Of a stretch of 64,000 nucleotides of DNA, positions 5,301 to 58,700 are shown piece after piece (the stretch's first letter is position 1; the number at the start of each line of letters is the position of its first letter). The notes under the pieces were generated by a model that saw only the letters and a list, made by a program, of their open reading frames with translations, was not told the origin of the DNA and ran no database searches. The stretch covers positions 273,694 through 337,693 of the forward strand of contig NZ_JAIRAU010000002.1 of assembly GCF_020073745.1 (NCBI RefSeq), written 5' to 3'. This DNA is from Nannocystis pusilla. GTDB lineage: Bacteria; Myxococcota_A; Polyangia; Nannocystales; Nannocystaceae. The position numbers and the translations under genes were made by a program.

Positions 5301-6140
5301 TCACGCGGGTACGAAGCAGGCCCCAGCGTTCTCGTAACCCGGGGCCGGAGCGGGGAACAGACTCTCACACAGCGAGGGCGACGCGCACTGGCCGTCGCCC
5401 TCGCTGATCTCGCACGTGGAGGTGCAGCAGCTGCTCGAGCCGCAATTGGGTACGAGAGCGCCGGGCATGCATACGTATGTCGGGGCGCACCCGCGGCCGT
5501 TGAACTCCGAGCAGTTGGTGCCCTCGGTGCCGATGTCGACGTCGAGCATCATGTCGCAGATGAAGCGGTCCTTGCCCTGCCGACAGCCGAGGCCGGGCGG
5601 ACAGGTGCCCACGAAGGGATCACAGCTGTCCGCGCAGAAGGTCGTGCCGGTGAACGGGCTGGTGCTGCACAGGCCGGGCTCGCAGTCGACGTCGTTGCGA
5701 CAGAGCGGGAAGCAGCGGCCCGCGAGCGGGTCGTCCTGGGTCGACGAGAGGCACACCGTGCCGGCGCCGCACTGGTCCTGGCCGCTCTCGGGCGCAGGCG
5801 TGCAGGGATCGAGCGGCAGCAGCGCGCTGTCGTCGGGGACGCACTTGAAGTGGTTCTGCAGGCCGCCGTCGCTGACGGCGGTGCACTTCTGTCCCATCGG
5901 ACATGCGGGCGTTCCGGACGGTTCACAGTCGAAGACCGGGGTGAAGTCGGGCGGCTGTTGCGGGCCGCCCGTCGGCTCGGTGTCGGACTCGGTCTCGCCG
6001 CCGCTGCTGCCGACCTCGTCGTTGCCGGCGCTGTCGCCGTCGTCGAAGGGGACGCGCTGACATGCCCCGGCGAGCATGAACACAAGGACAGGTGCGAGGC
6101 GAGCGGCGGCGACGCCGGGGCGGAGGTGCGCGGCGAACAT
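5301..6140 (-). CDS. Cys-rich secreted lipoprotein (about 40 Cys in 279 aa, acidic N-terminal linker)
   Basis: Start MFAAHLRPGVAAARLAPVLVFMLAGAC has a lipobox. Repeated CxxxxC/CxxGxxC patterns. The ORF-track ORF 5301..7028 was trimmed to this ATG. Confidence 0.6.
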   Translation of the reverse strand: MFAAHLRPGVAAARLAPVLVFMLAGACQRVPFDDGDSAGNDEVGSSGGETESDTEPTGGPQQPPDFTPVFDCEPSGTPACPMGQKCTAVSDGGLQNHFKCVPDDSALLPLDPCTPAPESGQDQCGAGTVCLSSTQDDPLAGRCFPLCRNDVDCEPGLCSTSPFTGTTFCADSCDPFVGTCPPGLGCRQGKDRFICDMMLDVDIGTEGTNCSEFNGRGCAPTYVCMPGALVPNCGSSSCCTSTCEISEGDGQCASPSLCESLFPAPAPGYENAGACFVPA

Positions 6141-19916: not shown

Positions 19917-21383
19917 TCAGAAGTTCACGTCGAGGTAGATGTTGGTGAGGAAGATGTTCTGCTTGTAGACGCCGTCGGCGCTGGCCTGCTTGGTGGGCGC
20001 CTGGAACTTGTTGAGGACGTTGCGGCCCTTGGTGTCGACCTTGAAGTAGGCGATGTCGGTGAAGGTCACGCCGAGGTGGAGCCGCTGGTGCAGGCGGAAC
20101 CGGCCGCCGAGCGAGAAGGTCATCTTGTGGGAGTCGAGCAGGGCGGGCTCGATGGTCTGCACGGGGACGGCGCTGCTGTCGAAGCCGACGCCGGCGTACA
20201 GCTCGACCGGGTCGACGACCCAGTAGCTGGCGCCGAAGCGCACGCCGCCGGCCGGCTTCCAGAAGCGCGGGATGTGCTGGGTGACGCCCTTGGTGCCGTC
20301 ACCCTCGGCGCCGAACTCCTCGGGCTTGGTGAGGGCCGTGTCGGCGCCGGCGAAGTCGCACTTGCGACCCTCGATGCTGGCGTCGAGGACGCACTGCTTG
20401 TCCATGACCTTCCAGTTGGTGAAGTCGCCGAACAGGCGCAGCTCGAGCTTGGGCACCGGGCGGACGCGGAAGCCGAGGCGGACGATGTCGGGGAGGCGCT
20501 GCGTGAGCTCGATCGGGGTCGCGTCGGAGACGGGCGCGACGCCGAAGGCGTTGGTGAGCTCGCCCTTGAGCGTCATGTTGCCGGTGATGTTGGGCCGGCT
20601 GGTGTACGAGGCGCCGATCCACAGCTTGTCGCGCCAGTTCCAGATCGCGCCGATGCCGAAGCTGCCCTGCCAGCCGGACGCCTTGAGCCAGCTGCGGCCC
20701 TCCTTGAGGGTGCCGTCGGACAGCACGAGGTCGTCGGTGCCGTCGGAGTTGCGGGCGCGGATGGTGTCGATCTCGCTGCGGATGGCGCTGCCCGACAGGC
20801 CGATCGAGAGGCCGATCTTGGCGATGTTGAAGGCGACGGCGCCGGTGATGTACATCGAGCGCAGCTTGCCGTCGATGGTGTGCCAGCGCTGCACGCCGTC
20901 GACCGCGCCCGGGTAGTCCTGGCTGCCGCGGTACTTGTCGTTGGGCTTCCACGTCGACTGGCCGCCGAACGGGAAGTAGACCGCGGCGCCGGCCGAGAAG
21001 AACTTGGTGCCGAAGTCCGAGCTGGCGCCGGCGAACGGGCCGGCGATGAAGTTGGACAGCTTGGCGGTGCCGGCGTTGGCGTCGGTGGCCCCCTCCGGCG
21101 TGCCGGTCATGCTGCTGATGGCCGACTCCGGCCGGTCGTAGCTGACCCAGCGGGCGGCGAAGCTGCCGTCGACGAAGATGCGTGTGCCGGGCTTCAGCGC
21201 GATACCCGCGGGGTTGTAGTAGATCGCGGTGGGGTTGTCCGTGGTCACGTGACCGTGCTCGCCGCCGAATCGCGCGGTGCTGAGGCCGGAGGCCCGGGCC
21301 TCGCGTGCGCCGAGCAGAGCGGCGGTCATCAGGCCACAGGCGAGGAGGGTGCGCGAGCGAGACGCATGGCGGGCGAGCGACAT
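19917..21383 (-). CDS. FadL/OmpP1/TodX-family outer-membrane transport protein
   Basis: Signal peptide. FadL-like N-terminal hatch motif LSTARFGGEHGHVTTDNPTAIYYNPAGIA. Terminal F (...NIYLDVNF). Confidence 0.8.
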   Translation of the reverse strand: MSLARHASRSRTLLACGLMTAALLGAREARASGLSTARFGGEHGHVTTDNPTAIYYNPAGIALKPGTRIFVDGSFAARWVSYDRPESAISSMTGTPEGATDANAGTAKLSNFIAGPFAGASSDFGTKFFSAGAAVYFPFGGQSTWKPNDKYRGSQDYPGAVDGVQRWHTIDGKLRSMYITGAVAFNIAKIGLSIGLSGSAIRSEIDTIRARNSDGTDDLVLSDGTLKEGRSWLKASGWQGSFGIGAIWNWRDKLWIGASYTSRPNITGNMTLKGELTNAFGVAPVSDATPIELTQRLPDIVRLGFRVRPVPKLELRLFGDFTNWKVMDKQCVLDASIEGRKCDFAGADTALTKPEEFGAEGDGTKGVTQHIPRFWKPAGGVRFGASYWVVDPVELYAGVGFDSSAVPVQTIEPALLDSHKMTFSLGGRFRLHQRLHLGVTFTDIAYFKVDTKGRNVLNKFQAPTKQASADGVYKQNIFLTNIYLDVNF

Positions 21384-21479
21384 GAAGAAGACCTCGGACG
21401 GCGACGACAAACCGCCGCCACTTTACACCGAGGCCACTGCTTTACGGCGGACAAAATGCACGGCAGAGTGAGGCGCACG

Positions 21480-22133
21480 ATGTCCCGATTTCTCTCGGTG
21501 CTCGGCCTCTCGTCGCTTCTCGTGTCGCCCCTCGCCCTCGGGGGATGCCCCGACTCGGAGGCGAAGTTCAACGAATTCCTCGACAACACCAAGGACGACC
21601 GCGACTTCATGCCGCCGCCGCCTCCGGACGTGATGCCGGCGCAGGCCGACATCAGCGGCGACTTCTTGCTGGCAGTGTCGACGGTCATCGCCCCGGACCT
21701 GCCGATGCAGTTCATCGCCACCAATACGATGACGGTCGACGAGAACGGCGACACGCTGCTCGACACCTGCCTGCAGCCGCTCAGCCTCACGCAGGGCAAG
21801 GTCAACGTGCCGCGCGAGCCGATCGGCGATCCGCTGTGCTACGAGGCGGTCCCGATCGCCGACGGCAAGTTCGACGTCGACGCCGGGGAGGTGAACGTCA
21901 CCGGCGCGGCCAATCCGGTCACCGGCGGCGAGATCGTGGCGACCCTCAAGCTGATCGGCTCGATCATCGACGAGAACTTCTACTGCGGCGACATCGAGGG
22001 CGATGTCTCGAGCCCGCTCGTCGCCAACCTGAAGGGCTCGACGTTCGCGGCCGTCCGCCTCGAAGATCCCGCCGTGCTGCCGCTCGACGTGACGAAGAAC
22101 TGCAGCGGCGACACCATCCGCGACATGGATTGA
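21480..22133 (+). CDS. Lipoprotein, hypothetical (divergent from the fadL-like gene)
   Basis: Start MSRFLSVLGLSSLLVSPLALGGC has a lipobox; 217 aa. Confidence 0.6.
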   Translation: MSRFLSVLGLSSLLVSPLALGGCPDSEAKFNEFLDNTKDDRDFMPPPPPDVMPAQADISGDFLLAVSTVIAPDLPMQFIATNTMTVDENGDTLLDTCLQPLSLTQGKVNVPREPIGDPLCYEAVPIADGKFDVDAGEVNVTGAANPVTGGEIVATLKLIGSIIDENFYCGDIEGDVSSPLVANLKGSTFAAVRLEDPAVLPLDVTKNCSGDTIRDMD

Positions 22134-22221: not shown

Positions 22222-23541
22222 ATGACAACGACGGTCTCGCCCCCCACGCCCGCCGGGCAGTGGTCCAAGGTCCGCAACGAGCTGCAGCAGCTGTGGCACA
22301 CCGAGCTGCGCGACTCCAACATCCGCACGGCGTACGTGGTGTGCGGGATGACCGGGACGGCGTACGGGATGGTGACGGCGGTCGTCGCGGTCTACCTGAA
22401 CAAGGTCCGCGGCATCGACGAGCTGACCATCGGCGAGCTGGCGATCTTCTTCTCGTTCGGCATCGCGGCGTTCAGCGTGCCGATGGGCATGCTGATCAAG
22501 AAGCTGTCGCCGCGGACGATGCTGTCGGTGGCGCTGCTCGTGTACGCGGCGGCGACGGCGATCTTCCCGTTCTTGCTCAGCTTCGGCGGCCTGGCGGCGG
22601 CGCGCGGCATCGACGGGGCGTTCTCGGTCGGCGTGTGGGTCAGCCTCGAGACGGTGCTGCTGATGCGGACGTCGACGGCGCACCGCGGGCTCATCACCAG
22701 CCTCTACACGATCTCGATGGCGACCGGCTACGGCATCGGCGCGGTGTTCGGCTGGGCGGTGATGCTGCTGTATCCGATGCAGATGGTGTTCGTGGCCGCG
22801 GGCCTGTTCGCCTCGTTGGCGGCGCTCATCGCCTACGTGTTCCTCGACCGCGAGATCCACCCGATCGCCGGCAGCGACCACGTCCACGAGGACGCGAGCC
22901 CGAAGCCGACGAACGCGGTCGAGGCCGGGCGGCCGCCGATCCTGTCGCTGTACTGGAAGATCAAGACGGCCTGCATCCCGACGTTCTGCTACGGCTACTT
23001 CCAGGCGTCCCTGGTGCTGTTCCTGCCGCTGTTCCTCATCGAGTCGCGCGCGGTGCCGAAGGAGGACACGAGCCTGCTGGTGGCGAGCTTCTCGATCGGG
23101 ATGGCGGCCAGCGTTGTGTTCGTCGGGCGGCTCGGCGATCGCTTCGGCCACCTGAAGACGGTGCGCACGCTGGTGGCGCTCGGGGTGGTGCTGACGGCGT
23201 CGCTGGTCTACCTGCCGACGTACGCGATGGTGGCGGTGGCGGTGCTGTTCGCGGGCGCCTCACTGGCGCCGATCTGGCCGATGAGCCTGGCGCTGCAGAG
23301 CCTCATCGTCGATCCCCGCGACTACAGCCGCAGCAACGCGCTGCTCAACGGGTCGTACGGGCTCGGCACGCTCGCGGGTCCGCTGGTGTCGGGCTACCTG
23401 TTCAAACACCACGGCGGCGAGACGATGTTCCTGCACATCGCGGTGCTGTGGGCGCTGGCGCTCCTGGCGACGCTGGCGTTCCGCCGCGACGATCCGAGCT
23501 TCCGCGCGCTCGCCCACGCGCGCGCCCGCGCGGCCGTGTGA
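22222..23541 (+). CDS. MFS transporter
   Basis: 12 predicted TM segments. MFS-like motifs (GMLIKKLSPR, loop RRDDPSFR). Confidence 0.85.
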   Translation: MTTTVSPPTPAGQWSKVRNELQQLWHTELRDSNIRTAYVVCGMTGTAYGMVTAVVAVYLNKVRGIDELTIGELAIFFSFGIAAFSVPMGMLIKKLSPRTMLSVALLVYAAATAIFPFLLSFGGLAAARGIDGAFSVGVWVSLETVLLMRTSTAHRGLITSLYTISMATGYGIGAVFGWAVMLLYPMQMVFVAAGLFASLAALIAYVFLDREIHPIAGSDHVHEDASPKPTNAVEAGRPPILSLYWKIKTACIPTFCYGYFQASLVLFLPLFLIESRAVPKEDTSLLVASFSIGMAASVVFVGRLGDRFGHLKTVRTLVALGVVLTASLVYLPTYAMVAVAVLFAGASLAPIWPMSLALQSLIVDPRDYSRSNALLNGSYGLGTLAGPLVSGYLFKHHGGETMFLHIAVLWALALLATLAFRRDDPSFRALAHARARAAV

Positions 23542-23588
23542 GGCGCGGCGGGGGCCTCGGCGCCGGGGCCCGGCGGCCCGCCGTTGTT

Positions 23589-24647
23589 ATGCTCGCGGGC
23601 ATGGGCCTGCTCCACCGCCTCTATGCCCGCGCCGCGCCCGAGGTCTGGGAGACCGAGACGCGCCTGCTGCACGCGCTCCGCCTGGTCCGCCGGCCGGTCG
23701 CGGTGCAGTGGATCGCCACCAACATGTGCGACCTCCGCTGCCCGCACTGTTACTCCGGCGCGGGCAAGCGGGCGGTCGGCGAGCTGACGACGCAGGAGGT
23801 GCTGCGCCTGGTGGTCGACGAGATGGTGGCGCTCGGCAAGCCGACCTTCGTGATCGCCGGCGGCGAGCTGCTGCTGCGCCAGGACATCGCCGAGATCGTC
23901 GCGTACGCGCGGGCGCAGGGGCTCGAGTGGGCCATGCACACGCACGGCGGACATGTCCCGAAGTTCAGGGCGATGTTCGAGCGCCACCCGCCGACGCTGG
24001 CGGCGATCAGCCTCGACGGCGAGCAGCGGCAGCACGACCTGTTCCGCGGGCGCCGCGGCAGCCACGCGGCCGCGCTGGCGGCGATCCGCACGCTGAAGGA
24101 GTGCGGCTGCCCGGAGGTGGTGGCGGGGACGACGGTGACGCGCGACAACGCCGACCGCCTGGCCGACCTGTTCCCGATCGTGGCGGCGTCGGGGGCCGAC
24201 TCGTGGGGGCTGCACCTGTTCGCGCCGGAGGGCCGCGGGGCGGAGCACACGGCGCTGTGCCCGACGCCCGAGCAGCTGCAGCGCGTGGCCGCGTTCGCCC
24301 GTCGCAAGCGCGAGCTGTTCCACGTCGAGCTGTGCAACGAGTGGGGCAGCGCGGGCGCCGACGATCGCTTCTACCGCGACCAGCCGTTCCTGTGCGGGGC
24401 GGGCCGGATCTCGTGCGTGATCGGGGCGACCGGGGAGGTGCTGCCGTGCACGACCACCGACCTGCGCGAGTCGGAGGGCAACCTGCGCGAGCGACCGCTG
24501 CGCGACATCTGGACCCGCGGGTTCACGCGCTTCCGCACCGCGGGGCCGCGCGAGTGCTCCGACGGGCGCGAGTGCTGGCTGCAGGCCCGCAACGGCAACC
24601 CGTGCCGCGAGCAGGCGTTCGGCGCCTGTCGCAAGGAGGCCGTGTGA
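23589..24647 (+). CDS. Radical SAM enzyme with C-terminal SPASM domain (likely peptide/protein-modifying maturase)
   Basis: CxxxCxxC cluster NMCDLRCPHCY. SPASM cysteines CGAGRISCVIGATGEVLPC ... CSDGRECWLQARNGNPCREQAFGAC. Confidence 0.85.
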   Translation: MLAGMGLLHRLYARAAPEVWETETRLLHALRLVRRPVAVQWIATNMCDLRCPHCYSGAGKRAVGELTTQEVLRLVVDEMVALGKPTFVIAGGELLLRQDIAEIVAYARAQGLEWAMHTHGGHVPKFRAMFERHPPTLAAISLDGEQRQHDLFRGRRGSHAAALAAIRTLKECGCPEVVAGTTVTRDNADRLADLFPIVAASGADSWGLHLFAPEGRGAEHTALCPTPEQLQRVAAFARRKRELFHVELCNEWGSAGADDRFYRDQPFLCGAGRISCVIGATGEVLPCTTTDLRESEGNLRERPLRDIWTRGFTRFRTAGPRECSDGRECWLQARNGNPCREQAFGACRKEAV

Positions 24648-25990
24648 AGCGCTGGTGGGTCGACCTGTGGGCGTTCGCGGCCGCGCTGGCGCTGGCGGCG
24701 GCGGTGCTCCTGCGCTGGCGCGGCGGCCAGGTGGCGCTGCTGTCGAGCACGGCGGCGCCGGCGATCCGCCTGCTGGCGCTGCTGGTCGTGTTCGTGCAGG
24801 GCTGCGCCGACCGGCTGCGCGGGCGCGAGGAGCCGGCCGGGCAGGGGGCGGCGCCGCGGCCGGCCGGGCAGGACGAAGGACAGGAGATGGCGGAGACGAC
24901 AGGTCTTTCGCAACATGGCGAGAAGGACCTGTCGGATGCGACAGGTCCTTCAGAACAGGGTGACGAGGACAGTGCCATGGGGACAGGTTCGCCGCCGGCC
25001 CCGGCGCTCGGGCCCGACGTGTTCCCGCTGGCCGACGAGGCGGCGCTGAACCGCTGGGCGCGCCTGGTCACCGACGACGCGTCCCTCCCGGCCCGGGCCA
25101 AGCAGCTCGCGCTGGCGCTGCTGCTGGTGCCCGAGGGGGCGCCGGCGCAGGACCCGGGGTGGTCGCAGGTCACGGCATCGCTCGACGCGCTGACCGAGGC
25201 GCAGGTGTTCCGGGCGCGCTGGCAGGCCCACGTCGAGGCGCGCCGGACGGGCGGCAAGGAGACGATCGCCGACGCGCTGGCGCTGCTCGCGGCCATGGAG
25301 GCGCTGCCGCTCTACCACGCGGGGCTGGCCGGGTACCTGTGGCGCCGGGCAGCGCCGCTGCCGGCGAGCGCGACGGAGCGGGCGGAGCTGCTGGGTCGGC
25401 TCGAGCGCCACCTGCGGGCCTGCGAGGCGCTGCGCCGGGCGCAGTTCGAGACGGGGCCGATCGAGTTCACGGCGTGGCGCAGCAAGGCGGCCCCGCCGGC
25501 CGGCTACTCGGGGCTGCGGGTGCCGCCGGGGCTGCTCGCGGCCGCGCGGAGCCACTACCCGAACAGCGACGCGGGCACGTGGGCGACGCAGGCGACGCTC
25601 GATCTGGCGGTGGCGACGCCCGGCGTCCACCTGCTGCGCGCCGGCCAGGCGAAGCCGCTGCAGCCGGGCCAGCGGGTGACGCTGCGCCGGCTCGACGTGC
25701 TGTGGGCCGAGCGGCCGGCGACGCTGCGCCACGATGAACTCGGGGACATGTCCCTGGGGGCAGGCGCGGTGGTGACGGCGTGGGACGTGGGGGCGCGGTT
25801 CGCGGCCGCCGGACGGGAACTGGTCCGCGAGCGGGTGGCCGCGGCCCGCGGCGGCGACGCGACGGCGCTGAAAGGGCTGGAGGCGATCCTGCCGGCCGCG
25901 CACGCGGAGATCCGCCGGGCGGTGGCCGAACAGGCCCAGGCCGCCGGGTCGCCGGGGCTGCGCACGCTGCTCGAGCTGTTCGACATGTGA
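24644..25990 (+). CDS. Membrane-anchored hypothetical protein, translationally coupled to the radical SAM gene (GTG overlaps its TGA)
   Basis: N-terminal TM helix WWVDLWAFAAALALAAAVLL. Contains an internal cluster of GGACAGGT-type palindromes (24880-24990) in a low-complexity linker. The gene model may actually be two genes. Confidence 0.45.
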   Translation: MKRWWVDLWAFAAALALAAAVLLRWRGGQVALLSSTAAPAIRLLALLVVFVQGCADRLRGREEPAGQGAAPRPAGQDEGQEMAETTGLSQHGEKDLSDATGPSEQGDEDSAMGTGSPPAPALGPDVFPLADEAALNRWARLVTDDASLPARAKQLALALLLVPEGAPAQDPGWSQVTASLDALTEAQVFRARWQAHVEARRTGGKETIADALALLAAMEALPLYHAGLAGYLWRRAAPLPASATERAELLGRLERHLRACEALRRAQFETGPIEFTAWRSKAAPPAGYSGLRVPPGLLAAARSHYPNSDAGTWATQATLDLAVATPGVHLLRAGQAKPLQPGQRVTLRRLDVLWAERPATLRHDELGDMSLGAGAVVTAWDVGARFAAAGRELVRERVAAARGGDATALKGLEAILPAAHAEIRRAVAEQAQAAGSPGLRTLLELFDM

Positions 25991-26050
25991 TTGAATGGAC
26001 ATGTCGTCGGCGACATGTTCTACCGGGCATGTCCTAAGCGACATGCCCGT
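25983..26050. repeat. Cluster of GGACATGTCC-family palindromes (REP-like) between convergent gene ends
   Basis: gacatgtgattgaatggacatgtcgtcggcgacatgttctaccgggcatgtcctaagcgacatgcccgtgagg. Confidence 0.7.
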
Positions 26051-26054
26051 GAGG

Positions 26055-27077
26055 TCAGCCAGGCTGCAGCGCGGTGTGGATCGCGTAGGCGAGGATCGCC
26101 AGCGGCAACAGGTAGATCGTGGCCCAGGCGGCGCCCCAGGCCAGCGAGCGGGCGAGCTCGCCCTTGCAGTCGTGGCGATCGCGGGCGACGCGGGCGAGGG
26201 CGCGGGTGACGAGCAGGTAGATCAGCAGGAACAGCAGCGGACCGGCGACCTCGACCAGCAGCCAGGCGGCGCCGAAGAACAGCAGGACGAGCGCGGCGAC
26301 GACGATCATGATCAGGCAGCCCTCGCCGTCGCCGCCCGGGAAGTCGGCGCCCGAGCAGCCGTCGCCGCAGCCGCGGCCCTTGCCCTCGCGCGGGCGGTTC
26401 CACGGGGCGAAGTAGAGCCAGTCGTCGACGAGGTGGAAGCCGCGGTGCAGCAACGCGGCGAAGGCGAGGGTGGACAGGGCCCACCAGGCGGCCAGGACGG
26501 CCTCGATCTCGAGCCAGCGGGGCAGGGCGAGCGCGTGCGGCAGCAACACGGCCGTCAGCGCGAAGGCCAGGCCGGCGACCACGGCGGCGGTGGTGCCCGA
26601 CAACTTGGGCGAGAGGGCGGAGACGACGCGACGACCGCGGCCGCGCAGCGGGTGCTCGGCGCCGTCCATCACGTGGTCGTCGTCGGCGGCGTCGTGTTCA
26701 CCCCGCGGCTGCACCGGCAGCGATGGTTCGAACGCGCTGTAGAGCAGGTAGGCGAACACGAGCAGGATGACGAGCGCGAACAGGCCGAGCGAGAGCTTGT
26801 AGTCCGGCCACAGCTGCCAGCGCAGCGCGACCAGGGGCGCGCTGCCTGCCGCGAGGGCGAGGAAGGCGAAGGCGAGGGCGAGGCGACGACCGCGGTGCGA
26901 GGTGGCGACGTAGGCACACGGGGCGCACGCGGGCCGATCGCAGGCGTCCAGGGCGGCGCCGCGACGGCCGACGCGGAAGCGCCAGCACTCGTCGCACATC
27001 GCGGCGCTGCACAGGCTGCAGCGAGCGACGGGGGAGCGATCGCGGTGGTGATGACAGGCCGAGGACGAGTCCGGCAC
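26055..27077 (-). CDS. Integral membrane protein with an N-terminal Cys-rich zinc-ribbon-like segment
   Basis: N-terminal motifs CSLCSAAMCDECW ... CDRPACAPC. At least 6 hydrophobic helices follow. Confidence 0.55.
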   Translation of the reverse strand: MPDSSSACHHHRDRSPVARCSLCSAAMCDECWRFRVGRRGAALDACDRPACAPCAYVATSHRGRRLALAFAFLALAAGSAPLVALRWQLWPDYKLSLGLFALVILLVFAYLLYSAFEPSLPVQPRGEHDAADDDHVMDGAEHPLRGRGRRVVSALSPKLSGTTAAVVAGLAFALTAVLLPHALALPRWLEIEAVLAAWWALSTLAFAALLHRGFHLVDDWLYFAPWNRPREGKGRGCGDGCSGADFPGGDGEGCLIMIVVAALVLLFFGAAWLLVEVAGPLLFLLIYLLVTRALARVARDRHDCKGELARSLAWGAAWATIYLLPLAILAYAIHTALQPG

Positions 27078-28578: not shown

Positions 28579-31500
28579 TCAGGTCCCGACGGGTTCGTGT
28601 CGGGCGCTGCCGTTGTACATGGCGCTCCACTGCGCGGGGCGGCGGATGGCCTGCGAGGCGAGGAACTGATCGGCCTGGGCGATCAGCTGGGCGCCGCCGG
28701 GGCCCATCAACTCGCCGCGGCGACGGCGGGCGCAGGCGGCGTGGATCCGCATGTCGGCGGTGTCGAAGCTGGCGGCGGCCGCCTCGAGGCGGACGAGCGC
28801 CTGCGGGATGTCGTTGTTCTGCGCGGCGATGCCGGCGCGGATCAGCGCGGCCATGGCGACCGAGTCGTAGCGCAGCGCGCGGTCCTCCTCGAGCTGGGCG
28901 GCGTCGCGTTCGGCGGCGGCGAGCAGGACGCCGGCGTTGTGCGGCTGCTCGCGCGCGGCCGCGATGGCGGCGAGGGCCCGCGCGTGGAGGAAGACGATCC
29001 GCTGGCCCTGCCAGCCGAGGATGTACGAGTTCTCGACGGCGACCCAGTTCTCGGCCAGTCGCTGCCACGCGGCGCCGCCTTGCCCCTGGTACAGGTCGCA
29101 GAAGGTCTCGAGCACGAGCGCGAGCATGTGCTGGAAGTGGAAGCCGTCGCGGGTCCAGCGGCGCATGGTGTTGCGGACGCGGTCGCGGGCGCTGTGGATG
29201 TCGTCGGCGCTGAGCAGCCCGTAGGCGCTGTAGAGCGACGACCAGACCTCGCCGCACAGGTCGCCGGTCTCCTCGGCCTCGCGCAGCCAGGCGTGGGCGC
29301 GGCCGCCGAGCTCGGCGAGCTCGCCGAGCATGTACAGCGCGCGCATCGAGCTCATGCGCGAGACGTCGAGCTCCCAGCCGACGCCGACGCAGCGGTCGAG
29401 GAGGATCTGGGCGCCTTGCTCGTTGCGCTCGAGCGCGCGCCGCCAGCGGCCGAGCGAGACGTCGGAGAGGCCGTCGATGATCTCGCACAGGCCGAGCAGG
29501 CGCGGGTCCGACAGCTGCTCGGCCAGCCGGCGCGCCTCCTTCAACAGGGTGGTGCCGCGGCCGACGGCGTTGGCGGTGCCGCGGCTGACGACCATCGCGC
29601 CGACGCCGGCGAGGGCGCGGGCGATCCGCTGCGGTTCACCTGTCTGAAGGGCCAGGAGCAGCCCGCGCTGGAAGAAGCTGTAGCCGCGGATCGGATCGAC
29701 GAAGGCGAGGCCGACGGCGGCCGACAGGCACACGTCGAGGCGCAGCAGGTCGGCCGGCGGGACCTGGTCCTCGCGCACGCTGACGAAGTTGAGCCCGCGC
29801 AGGCTGAGCTGGGTCGAACGTGTAATGATGGACATGTTCGCCCGGCCAGGTGTGGCGGGGTAGCCGAGGTCGACCTCGACCAGCGCGGGCCGCAGCAGCC
29901 GGATGCCCTGGTCGATGTTGCCGCTGACGAGGAACTGCTCGCCGGCGCGGCGGCGCAGCTCGAGCGACTCGGCCGGGGCGGCGCCCTCGGCCGCGCTGGC
30001 GTAGACGGGGGCGGCGGCGGCGCTGCGCCCGGCCTGGGCGAGCGCGTCGGCGCGGCGGCGCAGCAGGGCCCGGCGCTCGTCGTCGGGCAGATCGGAGGCC
30101 CACGCGAGGGCGCGCTCGTAGAGCTGGGCGGCGCGGTGGAACGCGAGCGCGGCCGCGGCCCGCTCGGCGGCGGCGACGGCGGCGGCGAAGGCCTCCTGGA
30201 GGGCGCCGGCGGCGTGCAGGTGATGCGCGAGCAGCTCGGGGTCGTCGGCGGACTGGGCGAGCGCGTCGGCGAGGGTGCGGTGCAGCCGAGCCAGGTGATC
30301 GGCGCCGAGCTGGGCCAGCACGGTGTCGCGGATCCGGTCGTGATAGCACTCGACCGTGTCGCCGCCGCGGGTGGCCAGCGTGCGCAGCAGGTGCTGCGCC
30401 TGCAGCTCGCCGAGGATGGAGCGATCGGTGACGCCCGAGGCGGAGAAGGCGAGGTTGGCGGGGATCGGCCGCCCGGCGACGGCGACGATCTCGAGCAGGC
30501 GACGACCCGCGGCGCGCAGGCCGGCGAGGCGCGTGCGCACGACGGCGTCGAGCGAGACCTCGGGCGGGGCGGCGCCGCGGTGACCGGCGACGTGACGCGC
30601 GAGCTCCTCGACGAACAGCGGGTTGCCGCCCGACTCGGCGGCGATCCGGCGCGCGTCGGCGCGGGTGCCGTCGGTGTCGCGGCCGAGGCGGGCCAGCGCG
30701 AGCTCCTCGGCCTGCTCGGCCGACAGCGGCTCGACCAGCAGATCGCGGACCAGCGCCTTGAGCTCGGGCCGCGCGCCGAGGCGCCGGAGCTCGCGCAGCA
30801 TCGGCGCGTCGTCCTCGTCGATCCGGTACGAGCCGATGAACAACAGCGCCGGCGGATCGGGCGGCGACAACAGCTCGGCCAACAGGCGCGCGCTGTCCTC
30901 GTCGCCCCACTGCAAGTCGGCGATCCGCAGGACCAGGGGGCGGCGATCGGCGATCCGCGCCAGCAGCTCCTTGAGCCCGCGGAAGGCCCGCCGCCGGGCC
31001 TCCTGCGGGTCGGGGGCGGCGAAGTTGCGCTGCGGCAGATCGGCGACCACGGCGGCGCGCGCGAGCACGGGGAACAGCCGGGTGAGCTCGTGGATCTCGC
31101 GCGGCAGCAGGGCCGCGGCCTCCTCGGCGGGCAGGTGCCGCAGGTGCTGCGCGAGCGCGTCGAGGACGCTGTCGAAGGCCTTGTACGGCACGCTCTCGCG
31201 CTCGAAGCAGCGGCCCTGGAGGACGAAGGCGCGGTCGGTGCGGCGCAGCTCGGCGATGAAGCGATCGATGAGGGCGGTCTTGCCGATGCCGGAGCGGCCG
31301 CGGACGTACACGCACACCGGCGAGCCGGCGAGCGCGAGCTGGAACGCGTCGCGCATGGCCGACAGGAGATCGTCGCGGCCGACGAAGCGGGCGCCGCTCT
31401 CGGCCGGGCCGAGCGGGGCCTCGCCGAGCGCCTCACGGATGTCGGCCCCGCCGAGCCGCGTCGCCGGGTCGCGCCGCAACAGGCCCATGCAAAGGGTCGA

Positions 31501-33444
31501 CAGCGCCGGATCGACGGCGGGCGCGAGCTGCTCCGGCGGGGCCGGATCGTCGTGCTGCTTGGCGTGGAGGATCAGCAGCGGCGGGCCGGTGAAGGGCAGG
31601 CGGCCGGTGAGCGCCTCGTAGAGCATGACGCCGACGGCGTACCAGTCGCTCGCGGGCGTGGCGGGGTTGCCGGCGGCCTGCTCCGGCGCCATCGTCGCCG
31701 GGGTGCCGAGCAGGCCGTCCTCGCCGCCCTCGGCGACGTCGTCGGCGGCGAGGCCGAAGTCGAGGATCGCGACGCGGCCCTCGGGCGTGACGAGCACGTT
31801 CGACGACTTGAGGTCGCGGTGCAGCTTGCCGGCGGCGTGCAGGGCGCTGACGCCGGCCGCCAGCTGCAGCAGGGCCGGCCGCAGCCGCTCGTGCAGCCGG
31901 CCGGCGTCGCGCGCGTCTGGCTCTTCGGACATGTCCTGACGGACATAATCGACGAAGCTGACGCCGTCGACGAACTCCATGGTGATGAACCACTCGTCGG
32001 CGTGCGAGACCAGCTGGTAGAGGCTGACGAGGTTGGGGTGCGACAGGCCGGCGGCGCTGCGGAACTCGTTCTTGAGGCGGAACAGCGCGCCGGGGTCGAG
32101 CTTGTGCAGGGTCTTGAGCGCGAGGGTGCGGCCGCTGTCGCGGTCGACGGCGGCGTAGACGACGCCCATGCTGCCCGAGCCGACCCGACGCACCAGCTCG
32201 TAGCGGCCGAGGGGACGCGGAAGGATGTCCTCAGGGACAGGTAGCGTCGCCGGCAGCGAAGCGCGGGCCTGGGGCTCGTCGGAGTTCAAGGGAGCGAGCG
32301 GATTATGCCACGCGGGCCGGCCCGCGGTCGCTTCGGCGGGCAGCGCCCCCGGCGGGACGCCGAGGCCGGGGCCGCGGGGCCGCGGCAGTTCGGGCGCGAG
32401 CCGGTCCTGGCTGCCCGGCGGCATGGGGTCGTCCAGCGTGAGCATGTGGGCGTCGAGGTCGGCCTCGTCGGCGAGACGGGACAGGGCGCTGGCGGCGGCG
32501 AGCCCGACGCGGGTCTCGATCATGCAGCCGAGGAGCACGCGCAGGCCCTCCCGCCGGGCCGCGGCGATCATCGCCAGCGCGGGCGAGATCCCGCCGCACT
32601 TCATCAACTTGATGTTGACGCCGGCGACGGCGCCCGCGAGGGCGATCACGTCGTCCGGCCCCTGCACGTCCTCGTCGGCGTAGATCGGGATGGGTGAGTC
32701 GCGCGCGAGCGCCGCGAGCAGGTCGGGCCGCCCCGCAGGCAGCGGCTGCTCGAGCTGCTCGACCCCGAGGTCGACCAGCAGGGGGATGAGCGCGCGGGCG
32801 TCCTCCGGGGTCCAGCCGCCGTTGGCGTCGACCCGCAGGCGGGCCCGCGGGGCCGCGGCCGCGACCGCACGCACCGCCGCGCGGTCGAACTCACGGGCGC
32901 GCCCGAGCTTGATCTTGAGCACCGGCAAGTGCGCGGCCGCGGCCGCCCGGGCGGCCATCGCCGGCAGCTCGTCGAGCGCGATCGTGTACGAGGTCACGGC
33001 CGCCCCCGATGTGGCCAAAAGGACATGACCGTCGACACCTGCCCGATCGAGCACGTCGGGGTCGGCCAGCCAGTCGGCGAGCGGCAGATCCCGGGCCCGC
33101 GCGGCGGCGTCCCACAGCGCGGTGTCGACGGCGCAGCGGGCCGCGGAGTGGGCCGGGGCGAGCTCGCGCATGCGCGCGCCAGCGGCCGTGATCGCGCGCG
33201 GGTCGCCGAGGATCGCCGGATCGAGCTCGGCGGCGATGGCGACGGCCAGCGGGGCCGCCGCCGGCGCCGACTGCCCGAGGTAGCGCACCGGGGCGGCCTC
33301 GCCGAGGCCGCGGCGCTCGCGACCGTCCGGCGATCCCGGGGGTTCGAGGCGCACCAGCAGGCTCGGCAGTTCGCTCACGGTCCCGCGCGACAGACCGAAC
33401 GGGTGGCGCAGGCGAAGCGTGACGAGGGCGGCGCGCAGGTCCAT
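28579..33444 (-). CDS. 1621-aa ORF: N-terminal enolase-superfamily dipeptide-epimerase-like domain fused in frame to a Ser/Thr protein kinase, AAA/NB-ARC-like ATPase and TPR region
   Basis: Epimerase motifs (KIKLG, DANGGW, EQP, YADE, KLMKCGG, C-terminal PGLGV) occupy about 33444-32346. The kinase G-loop [21 protein letters not shown] and APE come next. Then a Walker A GRSGIGKT and long helical repeats. No in-frame stop lies between the domains. Confidence 0.6.
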
Positions 33445-33493
33445 GGACTCCCCGGTGTACCACCGCCGAGGCGCCATTGTATCGTGACGGCGC

Positions 33494-35008
33494 ATGCCCA
33501 GTCGCCGCCCCGGAGGCTCGTCCCCCAGCGTCGCGCTCGATCGGCTGTTCGACCGCGATTCGCCGCTCTCGTACGAGGAGCGGCTCGAGGCCCTGATCTC
33601 GGCGGCGCTGCCCGACCAGGTGCCGCGGCTGTCGTTCGGCGCCGAGCTGGCCCGCGGCGGCATGGGCTCGGTGAGGCTCGCGTTCGACGAGGTGCTGCAG
33701 CGGCGGATGGCCGCCAAGACCATGCACGCGCGGACCTACGAGCACCTGATCCTCGTGCACGGGTTCCTGCGCGAGGCCCAGGTCACCGGCCAGCTCGACC
33801 ACCCCAACATCGTGCCGATCCACGAGCTCGGCCGCGACGAGCAGGGCCAGGTCTACTTCACGATGAAGCTGGTCGAGGGCCAGAGCCTGAAGGCCATGAT
33901 CGCCGGCGAGGCGGCGACCGACCACGAGCGCCTGGTCCACCGGCTCGAGATCTTCGTCAAGGTGTGCGACGCGCTGTCGTTCGCCCACAGCCGCGGGGTG
34001 ATCCACTGCGACCTCAAGTCGGCGAACGTGATGGTCGGCGCGTACGGCCAGGTCTACCTGATGGACTGGGGCGGGGCGCAGCTGCTGCCCCTTCGGCCAG
34101 GTGCCGACGAGAGCCAGTGGGTCCGCGACGCCCTGCCGCCGCTGCCGCCGTCGGAGACCGACGGGCTGGTGTTCGGCACGCCGTCGTACATGTCGCCGGA
34201 GCAGGCGATGAGCCATTCGCTCGACGAGCGCTCCGACGTGTTCTCGATGGGCGCGCTGCTGTACGAGGTGATGACCGGCAAGCCGCCCTACCAGGCCAAG
34301 ACGGCGATGGACGCGCTGCTACTGGCGCAGCAGGGCAACATCGCGCCGCCCGACTCGCACGTGGCGGTGCCGTTCCCGCGCGAGCTGGTCCGCATCGTCA
34401 TGAAGGCGCTGCGCCGCGACCCCGACGACCGCTACGCCAGCGTGGCGGCGCTCCAGCAGGACATCGTCCGCCTGCTGCGCGGCAGCGGCAGCTTCCAGAC
34501 GGTCCGCTTCGCCGCCGGCGACCACGTCATCCGCGAGGGCGAGATCGGCGACGCGGCCTACATCGTGCTGGGCGGCCGGCTCGAGGTCTACAAGCTCGAG
34601 GGCGGGCACCACGTGTCGCTGCGCTGGCTCGGGCCCGGCGACGTGTTCGGCGAGACTTCGATCTTCGCCGCGTCGCGCCGGACCGCCAGCGTGCTGGTGG
34701 TCGAGGAGGCGACGCTGACGAAGATCACCAGCGACCTGATCGAGGAGGAGCTGACGTCGATGAAGCCGTGGATGGGGGCGTTCGTGCGCACGCTCGCGGC
34801 CCGCTTCGCCGGCATCGAGAGCCGCAGCGCCAGGATGCCGCTGCTGGCCGATCGCCCGTCCGCGCCGCCCCCGCCGCGCAGCGCCCCGCCGAGCGCGGCG
34901 CCGACGTCGTCGGGCGGCGAGAGCGTGATCATCGACATCGACGAGCCGCTCGACGAGCAACACGCGGCCAGCGACACGCACGTGACGCTGCTGGCGCGCC
35001 GCGAGTGA
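33494..35008 (+). CDS. Ser/Thr protein kinase with C-terminal cyclic-nucleotide-binding domain
   Basis: Kinase motifs (GMGSVRLA, HCDLKSAN, DWG, SPEQ). cNMP-binding motif (FGETSIFAASRRTASVLVVEEATL). Confidence 0.85.
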   Translation: MPSRRPGGSSPSVALDRLFDRDSPLSYEERLEALISAALPDQVPRLSFGAELARGGMGSVRLAFDEVLQRRMAAKTMHARTYEHLILVHGFLREAQVTGQLDHPNIVPIHELGRDEQGQVYFTMKLVEGQSLKAMIAGEAATDHERLVHRLEIFVKVCDALSFAHSRGVIHCDLKSANVMVGAYGQVYLMDWGGAQLLPLRPGADESQWVRDALPPLPPSETDGLVFGTPSYMSPEQAMSHSLDERSDVFSMGALLYEVMTGKPPYQAKTAMDALLLAQQGNIAPPDSHVAVPFPRELVRIVMKALRRDPDDRYASVAALQQDIVRLLRGSGSFQTVRFAAGDHVIREGEIGDAAYIVLGGRLEVYKLEGGHHVSLRWLGPGDVFGETSIFAASRRTASVLVVEEATLTKITSDLIEEELTSMKPWMGAFVRTLAARFAGIESRSARMPLLADRPSAPPPPRSAPPSAAPTSSGGESVIIDIDEPLDEQHAASDTHVTLLARRE

Positions 35009-54696: not shown

Positions 54697-55086
54697 TCAG
54701 GTGTAGCCGCCCCAGCAGTAGTCGGTGACCTGGCCGAGACCGTTGGCCTCGCAGAAGTTCTGCGCGGCCGGGTCGCACTCGTGGTCGTCGAGCAGGCCGA
54801 GGTCCCAGCGGCGGACGCCGGAGCTGCTGCACTGGACGAGGCAGACGTCGGTGGGCTCGCTGCGAGCGCAGGTGACGTCGCCGCAGGCGTGACACTGCGG
54901 GGCAGGGAGCACGGCCGTGTCGCCGAGCGCGGCGAGCCGGCGCGGCGGCAATTGCGTGGCCGCGACCGGCTCGGGCGTGCGAATGATGGGACCGTCCGGA
55001 TCGGTGGGCCCGGGGCCCGGCGTGCAGGCCGCCAGCCAGGTGACGGCGAAGATCAGACAGATGAGGCGCGGAGGCGGGGTTCGCAT
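54697..55086 (-). CDS. Small Cys-rich lipoprotein
   Basis: Lipobox VTWLAAC; 12 Cys in 129 aa. Confidence 0.55.
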   Translation of the reverse strand: MRTPPPRLICLIFAVTWLAACTPGPGPTDPDGPIIRTPEPVAATQLPPRRLAALGDTAVLPAPQCHACGDVTCARSEPTDVCLVQCSSSGVRRWDLGLLDDHECDPAAQNFCEANGLGQVTDYCWGGYT

Positions 55087-57656: not shown

Positions 57657-57835
57657 TTCTTGGGACAGGGTGCGCTTCGCAGCGCGTGGCGAACATGGGG
57701 CGCTTCGAGTCGATTGGCTCGGGGCGCTTGTCGTCGCGGAGATGGACTCGGGGGCTCGCGGTGCGGAGATAGGCTGGAGGGGCTTCGCTGATTGCCGGAT
57801 GCGCCTCGCATGGGGTCCGGGGATGCCTCGGCCGC

Positions 57836-58700
57836 GAGTTCAGCGGGCCGATGACCCCGACTTCGTCGTGGTCATCTTGCCCTCGTATTCGCGTCCGAGG
57901 CATCCCCGGACCCCGAGCACGGCTCACCCGTGAAAAGCCGACCCGCCGTCGTCGGCTTCGATGGCGGCTGTCCTCTGGGACATGTCCTTTGCTGCCTGTT
58001 CGACGGCCTGGTCGGCCGCCGAACAGGCGCTTTCTCTCGTCAATACCGGCGGGTCATCTCCCGCGACGAGTCGCGGCCGCGCGGGCTCTGCGGTGTAGCG
58101 AGTTCAGCGGACCCATGACCCGACTTCGTCGTGGTCATCTTGCCGCGGCGAGTCGCGGGCGAGGCATCCCCGGACCCGAGCACGGCTCACTCGTGAAAAG
58201 CCGACCCGCCGTCGTCGGCTTCGATGTTGGCTGTCCTCCGGGACATGTCCTTTGCTGCCTGTTCGACGGCCTGGTCGGCCGCCGAACAGGCGCTTTCTCT
58301 CGTCAATACCGGCGGGTCATCTCCCGCGACGAGTCGCGGCCGCGCGGGCTCTGCGGTGTAGCGAGTTCAGCGGACGCATGACCCGACTTCGTCGTGGTCA
58401 TCTTGCCGCGGCGAGTCGCGGGCGAGGCATCCCCGGACCCGAGCACGGCTCACCCGTGAAAAGCCGACCTGCCGTCGTCGGCTTCGACGGGGGGCTGTCC
58501 TCCGAGACATGTCCTTTGCTGCCTGTTCGACGGCCTGGTCGGCCGCCGAACAGGCGCTTTCTCTCGTCAATACCGGCGGGTCATCTCCCGCGACGAGTCA
58601 TGGTTGCGCGCCGGCTCTGCGGAGGCGGAGGCGGGCGCCGAACAGGCGCTTTCTCTCGTCGATACCGGCGGGTCGTCTCCCGCGCCGAAGATGTCGGCCT
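57836..58700. repeat. About 3.3 tandem copies of a ~264-bp highly structured non-coding element
   Basis: Near-identical units begin at about 57841, 58105 and 58368, with a partial fourth. Each unit contains hairpins gatgacc-N13-ggtcatc, aagccgac-N8-gtcggctt, ggacatgtcc, ctgttcg-N17-cgaacag and cccgcgac-gag-tcgcgg. Confidence 0.85.

Follow-up and report, generated by a model that had tools for sequence, protein, structure and literature searches.

Radical S-adenosylmethionine (SAM) enzymes of the SPASM type are often maturases of peptides that ribosomes make and that are modified after translation (RiPPs). Others act on whole proteins: anSME, the AtsB/ChuR-type anaerobic sulfatase-maturating enzyme, acts on sulfatases and QhpD acts on QhpC, in both cases in the cytoplasm and on a protein that is exported later. 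Here we examine a radical SAM enzyme from Nannocystis pusilla that belongs to the SPASM/Twitch group of this known superfamily but to no described family, along with the membrane protein that is encoded directly downstream of it, which we will call the partner. Both genes lie in a 64,000-nucleotide stretch of high-GC DNA (about 72% GC; assembly GCF_020073745.1, contig NZ_JAIRAU010000002.1, positions 273,694 to 337,693 of the forward strand), which we will call the window. A sequence-only reading of positions 22222-25990 of the window had proposed that an MFS transporter gene, the enzyme gene, and the partner gene form an operon. We found that the true unit is a two-gene module, comprising just the enzyme and the partner, that occurs in both Myxococcota and Planctomycetota and is at times fused into a single gene.

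The three genes are indeed co-oriented, on the + strand, and the GC content at their third codon positions (0.94-0.98) is typical of coding sequence. The enzyme gene (23601..24647, + strand) encodes 348 amino acids. (An ATG at 23589 would give 352 amino acids, but the most likely start is 23601, because homologues begin with MG(L/I)LHRL and have lengths of 344-371 amino acids. We number residues from 23601.) The partner gene (24644..25990, + strand) encodes 448 amino acids, and its product is 100% identical to a hypothetical protein from N. pusilla. Its GTG start codon (24644-24646) overlaps the TGA stop codon of the enzyme (24645-24647), giving the GTGA at 24644-24647 that had been pointed out previously, and a ribosome-binding site, AAGGAGG, lies just upstream at 24633-24639. 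As read from the sequence of this junction (24633..24647, + strand), the enzyme gene and the downstream membrane-protein gene are translationally coupled.

We then scanned one genome per species for loci that contain the enzyme and found 50, from Myxococcota (Nannocystaceae, Polyangia, and Kofleriaceae) and from Planctomycetota (Gemmataceae, Pirellulales, and Phycisphaerae). We searched all reading frames of these loci with profiles. Enough downstream DNA was available at 46 of them, and at 45 a homologue of the partner lies directly 3' of the enzyme. The remaining locus (785-2029 of L027) is on a 4.2-kb contig from a metagenome-assembled genome of Gemmataceae, with no partner in the 2.2 kb downstream of the enzyme. 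At another locus (918-4675 of L042), about 1.3 kb is inserted between the two genes. A metagenome scan in the other direction, seeded with an alignment of four partner sequences, gave the same picture: the enzyme is directly 5' of the partner in all 13 loci with upstream DNA. Where genes had been called (seven independent contexts), the arrangement was always the enzyme, a 4-nt overlap, and then a protein of 340-465 amino acids with no match in Pfam.

Stop and start codons overlap by 4 nt in 28 of the 38 unfused loci. At several other loci (L015, L016, L021, L025, L038, and L053, and also L066/L067), the enzyme and the partner form a single reading frame, with the enzyme first. Similarly, P0140 is a fusion protein of 783 amino acids that was called as one gene and has both Radical_SAM and SPASM domains, and nine representatives of partner clusters with at least 650 amino acids are fusions. 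(P0140 also has a Pro/Arg-rich insertion of about 40 residues in its auxiliary-cluster domain, at residues ~312-355, before the conserved CWLQ motif.) According to the sequence-only reading, the downstream protein might be either a substrate or a partner of the enzyme. Either role fits with a pair that is obligate from both search directions and sometimes fused. We found no description of the enzyme-partner family in the literature, and the family of the partner, its obligate pairing with the enzyme, their fusions, and the membrane split that we infer below seem not to have been described before.

The MFS gene (22222..23541, + strand) encodes 439 amino acids and matches MFS_1 from Pfam (150.6 bits) but no NCBIfam model at its cutoff. 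A homologue lies 5' of the enzyme in just 5 of the 50 loci (L007, L008, L009, L013, and L052), all from close Nannocystis relatives whose enzymes are at least 87% identical to the one in the window. In Nannocystis metagenome-assembled genomes whose enzyme is 82% identical, an aldehyde dehydrogenase gene occupies the MFS position. In other words, synteny across relatives fails for the MFS gene while it holds for the enzyme-partner pair, and the proposed three-gene operon does not stand: the MFS gene is a lineage-specific neighbor, found only in Nannocystis, outside of the conserved module. The spacer between the MFS and enzyme genes (23542..23600, + strand; 59 nt) contains a weak, GC-rich, terminator-like hairpin at 23571-23583 (CGGCG-GCC-CGCCG, then TTGTTATGCT). 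A scan of this region for terminators gave 1 terminator-like site versus 1.1 expected by chance, which is not significant.

These results bear on the idea that this is a RiPP or cofactor cluster, in which the substrate of the enzyme would be a small precursor that escaped annotation, with the MFS protein exporting the product. In Nannocystis, the three genes do lie close together and point the same way, and RiPP maturation is a common role for SPASM-type enzymes, as mentioned above. But the absence of the MFS gene from 45 of the 50 loci largely refutes this idea. No small precursor had been spotted near the genes by the sequence-only reading; across 52 loci, we likewise found no small open reading frame (ORF) within 600 nt upstream or downstream of the pair that is conserved beyond a single clade, or across lineages. 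(One cluster of small ORFs, from 44 loci, was a low-complexity artifact and vanished with filtering on.) In the window, the pair is flanked by gaps of 59 nt and 64 nt, and the first of these has no room for a precursor ORF. Furthermore, neither a Pfam scan nor the predicted structure of the enzyme has an RRE or PqqD domain, and the enzyme does not reach the cutoff of any curated RiPP maturase. Finally, the enzyme is unusually conserved, with 55-60% identity between phyla, which in our judgement is atypically high for a RiPP maturase. The module is not a classical RiPP cluster, and we consider the RiPP or cofactor model scarcely credible.

When we clustered the ORFs in the neighborhoods all-against-all, nothing else was conserved beyond single clades except for generic protein kinases. 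Kinase genes are present in 16 of 51 neighborhoods, and we judged this to be the background of kinase-rich phyla rather than a linkage. Because nothing else is conserved near the pair, the substrate must be either encoded within the module or a common component of the cell. (At one locus, a gene for an extracytoplasmic function (ECF) sigma factor lies directly 5' of the pair, at 7032-7664 of L003, which is a possible hint about function.)

We then examined the enzyme. It matches Radical_SAM from Pfam (PF04055; 61.2 bits versus a gathering cutoff of 29.5) and SPASM (PF13186; 33.1 bits versus a gathering cutoff of 21.5, at residues 269-329 if numbered from the start at 23589). In some homologues, the SPASM model matches weakly or not at all. 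We found over 235 homologues, and the best 120 of these are 59-96% identical to the enzyme. The CX3CX2C motif that binds the SAM-cleaving [4Fe-4S] cluster (23727..23750, + strand) had been identified previously as NMCDLRCPHCY; its cysteines (C43, C47, and C50) are invariant across 57 of 57 homologues.

The C-terminal auxiliary-cluster domain (24393..24629, + strand) had been described as having a full SPASM cysteine array. It does have seven cysteines, as C265-X6-C272-X10-C283 ... C319-X5-C325-X9-C335-X7-C343, and the first half of the SPASM motif is present, as C272-X10-C283 with G-X4-C. The second half is degenerate: it reads CX5CX9CX7C instead of the canonical CX2CX5CX3C...C, and the enzyme does not match the canonical two-cluster motif, CX9-15GX4C ... 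CX2CX5CX3C ... C. Also, only four of the cysteines are at least 95% conserved in the family. Across the 57 homologues, C265, C283, and C325 are conserved in 100%, C335 in 95%, C272 in 81%, C319 in 35%, and C343 in 5%. (In a further 37% of the homologues, a cysteine precedes C325 by three residues, for a spacing of CX2CX9C as in PqqE.) Given this pattern of conservation across the family, one auxiliary cluster is well supported, and the presence of a second cluster is uncertain.

The enzyme does not reach the cutoff of any curated radical SAM model in NCBIfam. The highest scores are for AhbD (129 bits versus a cutoff of 500), NirJ2 (120 versus 500), TIGR04053 (117 versus 395), MftC (112 versus 265), and TIGR04133 (111 versus 425), and lower scores include NirJ (99 versus 515), PqqE (84 versus 381), and WgkB (49 versus 650). 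Five of the 10 best matches are tetrapyrrole enzymes (AhbD, NirJ2, and NirJ, as well as NirJ1 at 96 bits and AhbC at 93 bits). This raises the possibility that the enzyme modifies a tetrapyrrole, as AhbD and NirJ do, in the biosynthesis of heme or a related cofactor, with the partner handling the cofactor at the membrane. At one locus, a porphobilinogen deaminase gene is directly 3' of the pair (8486-9556 of L075). But the tetrapyrrole models are equivalogs with cutoffs of 500-650 bits, and scores for AhbD and NirJ of around a quarter of their cutoffs fall far short. The alignment to AhbD covers mainly the core of the enzyme (residues 39-223). No ahb, nir, or other heme gene is conserved nearby, and L075 is one of about 60 contexts. 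The partner also lacks strongly conserved histidines or cysteines that could ligate heme. Altogether, a tetrapyrrole substrate seems very unlikely. The low scores also argue against a housekeeping enzyme, which the sequence-only reading had thought worth considering, and as for the sulfatase maturases it had named as an example, we did not see a sulfatase gene adjoining the pair.

The structure of the enzyme, as predicted by AlphaFold2 from the 57 homologues, has high confidence scores (a predicted local distance difference test (pLDDT) of 91.2 and a predicted template modeling score (pTM) of 0.90). In the model, about 35 residues precede the barrel, including one conserved helix of about 25 residues. 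Structural matches from Foldseek include SkfB, CteB, BlsE, DesII, SuiB, PqqE, and anSME, with template modeling scores (TM-scores) of 0.57-0.68. The substrates of these enzymes are of mixed types. If we consider both sequence and structure, then the nearest SPASM/Twitch relatives that modify peptides or proteins include SkfB, CteB, SuiB, PqqE, anSME, MftC, and StsB. Among solved structures, the best relatives by sequence are SkfB (across the core only) and PqqE (across nearly the full length). (We also compared the module to models of defense systems from PADLOC: the enzyme had generic similarity to viperins, in the radical SAM core, and the partner had no match.)

SkfB is the best match with a solved structure (E = 6e-26 by sequence and E = 3e-17 by Foldseek, with a TM-score of 0.68). 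SkfB is a Twitch enzyme, as are BlsE, DesII, and BtrN, and has one auxiliary cluster; the four C-terminal cysteines that are at least 95% conserved in our family are the number required for a single cluster. Unlike Twitch enzymes, our enzyme matches SPASM from Pfam above the cutoff, and most members of the family retain five or six cysteines. And unlike SkfB, it has no N-terminal RRE and no SkfA-like peptide.

PqqE and MftC are among the few matches that are nearly full length (residues 30-341 for PqqE and 34-329 for MftC). In an alignment of profiles, the family-conserved cysteines of our enzyme correspond to C248, C268, C313, and C323 of PqqE, and the C-X2-C-X9-C in 37% of the family resembles the spacing of C310, C313, and C323 in PqqE. 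However, equivalents of C325 and C341 of PqqE are missing, the scores are below the cutoffs for both models, and the enzyme's loci do not encode a peptide similar to PqqA or MftA, the RRE protein PqqD or MftB, or other pqq or mft genes.

The arrangement of the genes is reminiscent of anSME, which is also a SPASM-group enzyme of about 350-370 amino acids that lacks an RRE domain, and which is also encoded beside the gene for a protein that ends up outside of the cytoplasm and has a short conserved target motif. The structure of anSME is a match to our model as well (TM-score of about 0.64). Unlike the sulfatases, though, the partner does not match Sulfatase from Pfam and lacks the C/S-x-P-x-R motif; instead, it has A-W-x-S-K-A-x-P. 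The CX2CX5CX3C...C half of the SPASM domain is degenerate in our enzyme, and the sequence similarity to anSME is weak (E of about 1e-5) and is limited to the core. Also, we know of no fusions of anSME to sulfatases.

The short name of TIGR04133, "rSAM_w_lipo," suggests a link to a lipoprotein, and members of this family of radical SAM/SPASM enzymes are paired with a lipoprotein gene. TIGR04133 aligns to nearly all of our enzyme (residues 38-320), but the score of 111 bits is far below the cutoff, and the partner does not match any model in NCBIfam.

The partner is not similar to any known family: we found no match in Pfam, NCBIfam, PADLOC, or sequences from the PDB, and when we compared 41 diverse members to Pfam, accepting E values of up to 1, no family recurred. 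A profile search against 1.84 billion cluster representatives found about 210 clusters of partner proteins. Since this search was exhaustive, we conclude that the family is small and closed. (A homologue search with an alignment of diverse partners added three distant members, although the reach of this search was limited by its word index.) Between phyla, partners are 25-35% identical.

The AlphaFold2 model of the partner (pLDDT of 80.8) has N-terminal helices at residues 2-26 and 35-58, followed by a disordered linker at 60-120. The linker (24821..25003, + strand) has low complexity and a pLDDT of 34-39; it varies in length and cannot be aligned among the homologues. The rest of the protein is a conserved domain of about 320 amino acids, mostly with pLDDT above 90, that is helical at 132-307, has seven short strands at 319-371, and ends with four helices at 388-447.

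Within this domain, the conserved residues are arginine, tryptophan, lysine, and aspartate. Across 99 cluster representatives, no cysteine or histidine is conserved, so the partner has no obvious catalytic or metal-binding site. The most conserved motif is T-A-W-R-S-K-A-A-P-P-A (25469..25501, + strand), which has the family consensus R-A-W-M/R-S-K-A-G-P-P. In the core of the motif (A-W278-x-S280-K281-A-x-P284), W278 is conserved in 98% of the representatives, S280 in 84%, K281 in 95%, A282 in 81%, and P284 in 88%, and Ser280 is never replaced by cysteine. In an alignment of 41 partners, no columns other than W278 and K281 are invariant. According to DSSP, the motif lies in a coil, and its pLDDT of 80-85 is somewhat lower than in most of the domain. 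Another conserved motif is R349-L-D, with conservation of 100%, 96%, and 92%.

The partner had been described as having an N-terminal transmembrane anchor. There is an N-terminal hydrophobic anchor, but it has two segments rather than one. In the membrane module (24653..24805, + strand), segment 1 spans residues 4-24, an Arg/Lys-rich loop spans 24-42, and segment 2 spans 40-54 (ending with VQGC). We counted the N-terminal hydrophobic segments of 102 unfused representatives: most (84) have two, 16 have just one, and the other 2 lack them. In proteins with two segments, the loop between them has a median of 6 lysines or arginines and no aspartates or glutamates, there is about 1 lysine or arginine before segment 1, and the stretch after segment 2 is roughly neutral. 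The Arg/Lys-rich loop is conserved across phyla. The fusion proteins drop segment 1, but the cytoplasmic enzyme is still followed by the basic stretch and segment 2, and then by the conserved domain. Variants with a single segment, such as those at L003 and L028, have a highly basic N-terminus, and in a few members (P0229, P0253, and L023), the N-terminus resembles only a signal peptide or that of a lipoprotein. Based on the distribution of charges and these four architectures, the Arg/Lys-rich loop is probably cytoplasmic, by the positive-inside rule, which would place the linker and the ~320-residue domain outside of the cytoplasm.

We also asked if the partners could be a family of lipoproteins. 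A strict lipobox in the right position is found in 3 of 112 members, and a relaxed pattern is found in 23 of 112, so this is a feature of a clade and not of the family. In the Nannocystaceae clade (24761-24805 in the window, and also L010-L012, L017, L031, and L038), segment 2 ends with L/V-x-G/A/S-C, and this is retained even in a fused protein (LSAC in L038). From these sequences, the exported domain might be released by cleavage and anchored to lipid in this clade.

What is the function of this module? We tentatively favor the explanation that the enzyme is a dedicated maturase and that the partner is its protein substrate, which is modified before export. We favor this because the module is self-contained, because several of the closest relatives of the enzyme modify peptides or proteins, and because the partner lacks catalytic-looking residues and yet has a near-invariant loop. 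In the variants whose N-terminus resembles a signal peptide or a lipoprotein, the enzyme could meet the conserved domain only before export. In our proposed mechanism, the enzyme would act on the still-unfolded chain of the partner at the inner face of the membrane, in the way that anSME acts on sulfatases and QhpD on QhpC. This precedent is a further reason for our preference. The likeliest target would be the A-W-x-S-K-A-x-P loop, and the candidate chemistries are a carbon-carbon crosslink between the tryptophan and the lysine, or oxidation of Ser280.

Crosslinks between tryptophan and lysine are made by several enzymes of the same group, including StrB/SuiB and WgkB. The partner's two most conserved residues are a tryptophan and a lysine, three residues apart in a loop, which recalls these crosslinks and may be a lead as to the reaction. 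Another example is DarE, a radical SAM/SPASM enzyme that is described as forming a carbon-carbon crosslink between lysine and tryptophan (PMC9055067). The structure of SuiB is similar to our model, with a TM-score of about 0.65-0.68. The known crosslinking enzymes mostly bear RRE domains and act on short peptides with leaders, unlike the candidate substrate here, which is a membrane-anchored protein of 448 amino acids, and the score for WgkB is a small fraction of its cutoff.

Several observations weigh against a maturase and its target. An enzyme that is fused to a single-use substrate would be unusual, as fusions normally join the subunits of a complex. In the fused and anchored forms, the enzyme and the conserved domain would be on opposite sides of the membrane, so the partner would need to be modified before or during its translocation. 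The enzyme is far more conserved between phyla than the partner is (55-70% versus 25-35%). The conservation of the Arg/Lys-rich cytoplasmic loop, including in fusions, would fit equally well with a stable complex. The closest relatives of the enzyme include enzymes that act on small molecules (BlsE, DesII, AhbD, and NirJ). And modification of the partner is itself a proposal: W278 and K281 could bind a ligand instead.

The main alternative is that the partner is a subunit that tethers the enzyme to the inner membrane via the Arg/Lys-rich loop. In this case, the substrate of the enzyme would be a lipid, an intermediate linked to a lipid, or a common metabolite, and the extracytoplasmic domain would serve to bind the product or to sense a signal. 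The in-frame fusions and the 4-nt coupling imply a 1:1 stoichiometry, and the fusions lose hydrophobic segment 1 but retain the charged loop and segment 2. The conservation of that loop across phyla and the strong conservation of the enzyme fit as well. Some structural neighbors of the enzyme act on small molecules (the Twitch enzymes BlsE and DesII) or on lipids (GDGT-MAS), and a long disordered spacer before a globular domain is typical of envelope-spanning proteins. But the pair has no further conserved neighbors for biosynthesis, transport, or regulation. Some of the partners resemble secreted proteins or lipoproteins that are cleaved, and after cleavage nothing would remain in the cytoplasm to hold on to the enzyme. 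To our knowledge, there is no radical SAM enzyme that a periplasmic domain controls or is coupled to. We view a tethering subunit as possible but doubtful, and we continue to lean towards a maturase and its target.

A bolder idea is that the fused or coupled forms are a transmembrane radical SAM machine, with an extracytoplasmic domain that has a new fold, a single membrane segment, and a cytoplasmic catalytic domain. Ligand binding, damage, or some other event in the envelope would gate the radical chemistry inside of the cell, or the reverse. We consider this idea to be improbable, but a transmembrane machine, if real, would be a signaling or effector device without known precedent. A second and less radical option is that a dedicated enzyme installs a Trp-Lys crosslink or a protein-derived cofactor in an exported protein.

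Elsewhere in the window, the neighbors of the three genes have unrelated functions: they include an arginase-family protein, an AraC/DJ-1 regulator, a FadL-type outer-membrane protein, a lipoprotein, PurT, and kinases. The lipoprotein gene adjoins the MFS gene (21480-22133, + strand; 217 amino acids with 5 cysteines and no family match), and the gene for the outer-membrane transporter, which is of the FadL/TodX type (19917-21410, - strand), is divergent from it. Both are kept beside the MFS gene within Nannocystis only. The sequence-only reading stated that the locus is bracketed by genes for Cys-rich lipoproteins, but this was overstated, as the Cys-rich ORFs are 16 kb and 29 kb away. These encode lipoprotein-like proteins at 5301-6140 (- strand; 27 cysteines in 279 amino acids) and 54697-55086 (- strand; 10 cysteines in 129 amino acids), neither of which matches NCBIfam. 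Similarly, the suggestion that the enzyme belongs to a family from Myxococcales that matures Cys-rich peptides was not borne out: no cutoff in NCBIfam was reached and the partner has no conserved cysteine, although we did not identify the exact model that was meant.

Convergent to the partner gene is a gene for a membrane protein of 340 amino acids (26055-27077, - strand), whose Cys/His-rich N-terminus (CHHH...CSLCSAAMCDEC...) resembles a zinc finger and which has no match in Pfam or NCBIfam. Another gene (28579-33723, - strand) encodes a protein of 1714 amino acids with an unusual combination of domains: mandelate racemase/enolase-type, Ser/Thr protein kinase, and AAA_16 ATPase.

The window also contains a repeated palindrome, GGACATGTC(C), which occurs 22 times, considering both strands, versus 0.35 times expected from shuffled sequences. 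Sites include 535, 3501, 17985, 19849, 23949, 25744, 25997, 31927, 48480, 51674, 57978, 58241, 58506, and 58709. The sites are mostly intergenic and have extra half-sites (GACATG/CATGTC) close by; for instance, at the 64-nt spacer 3' of the partner's stop codon (25991-26054), six such hexamers are clustered at 25982-26045. It could be a short interspersed repeat, or else a regulatory site found throughout the genus. The palindrome GGACATGTCC is present in each of three tandem copies of a 263-bp unit at 57834-58622 (94% matches).

Overall, what had seemed to be a speculative three-gene peptide cluster narrows to a defined module of two genes, or sometimes one. Neither protein is covered by a curated family, and the partner has no recognizable relative by fold. 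The enzyme's family is one of many uncharacterized families of radical SAM enzymes, and the chemistry that we propose for it is by analogy. If the partner is the substrate, then a new class of proteins, exported and anchored in the membrane, would join the short peptides and sulfatases on which SPASM-type radical chemistry is known to act, and the near-invariant W-x-S-K loop would be the exact place to look. If it is a subunit instead, then no earlier case would be known of a radical SAM enzyme with a physical link to an extracytoplasmic domain.

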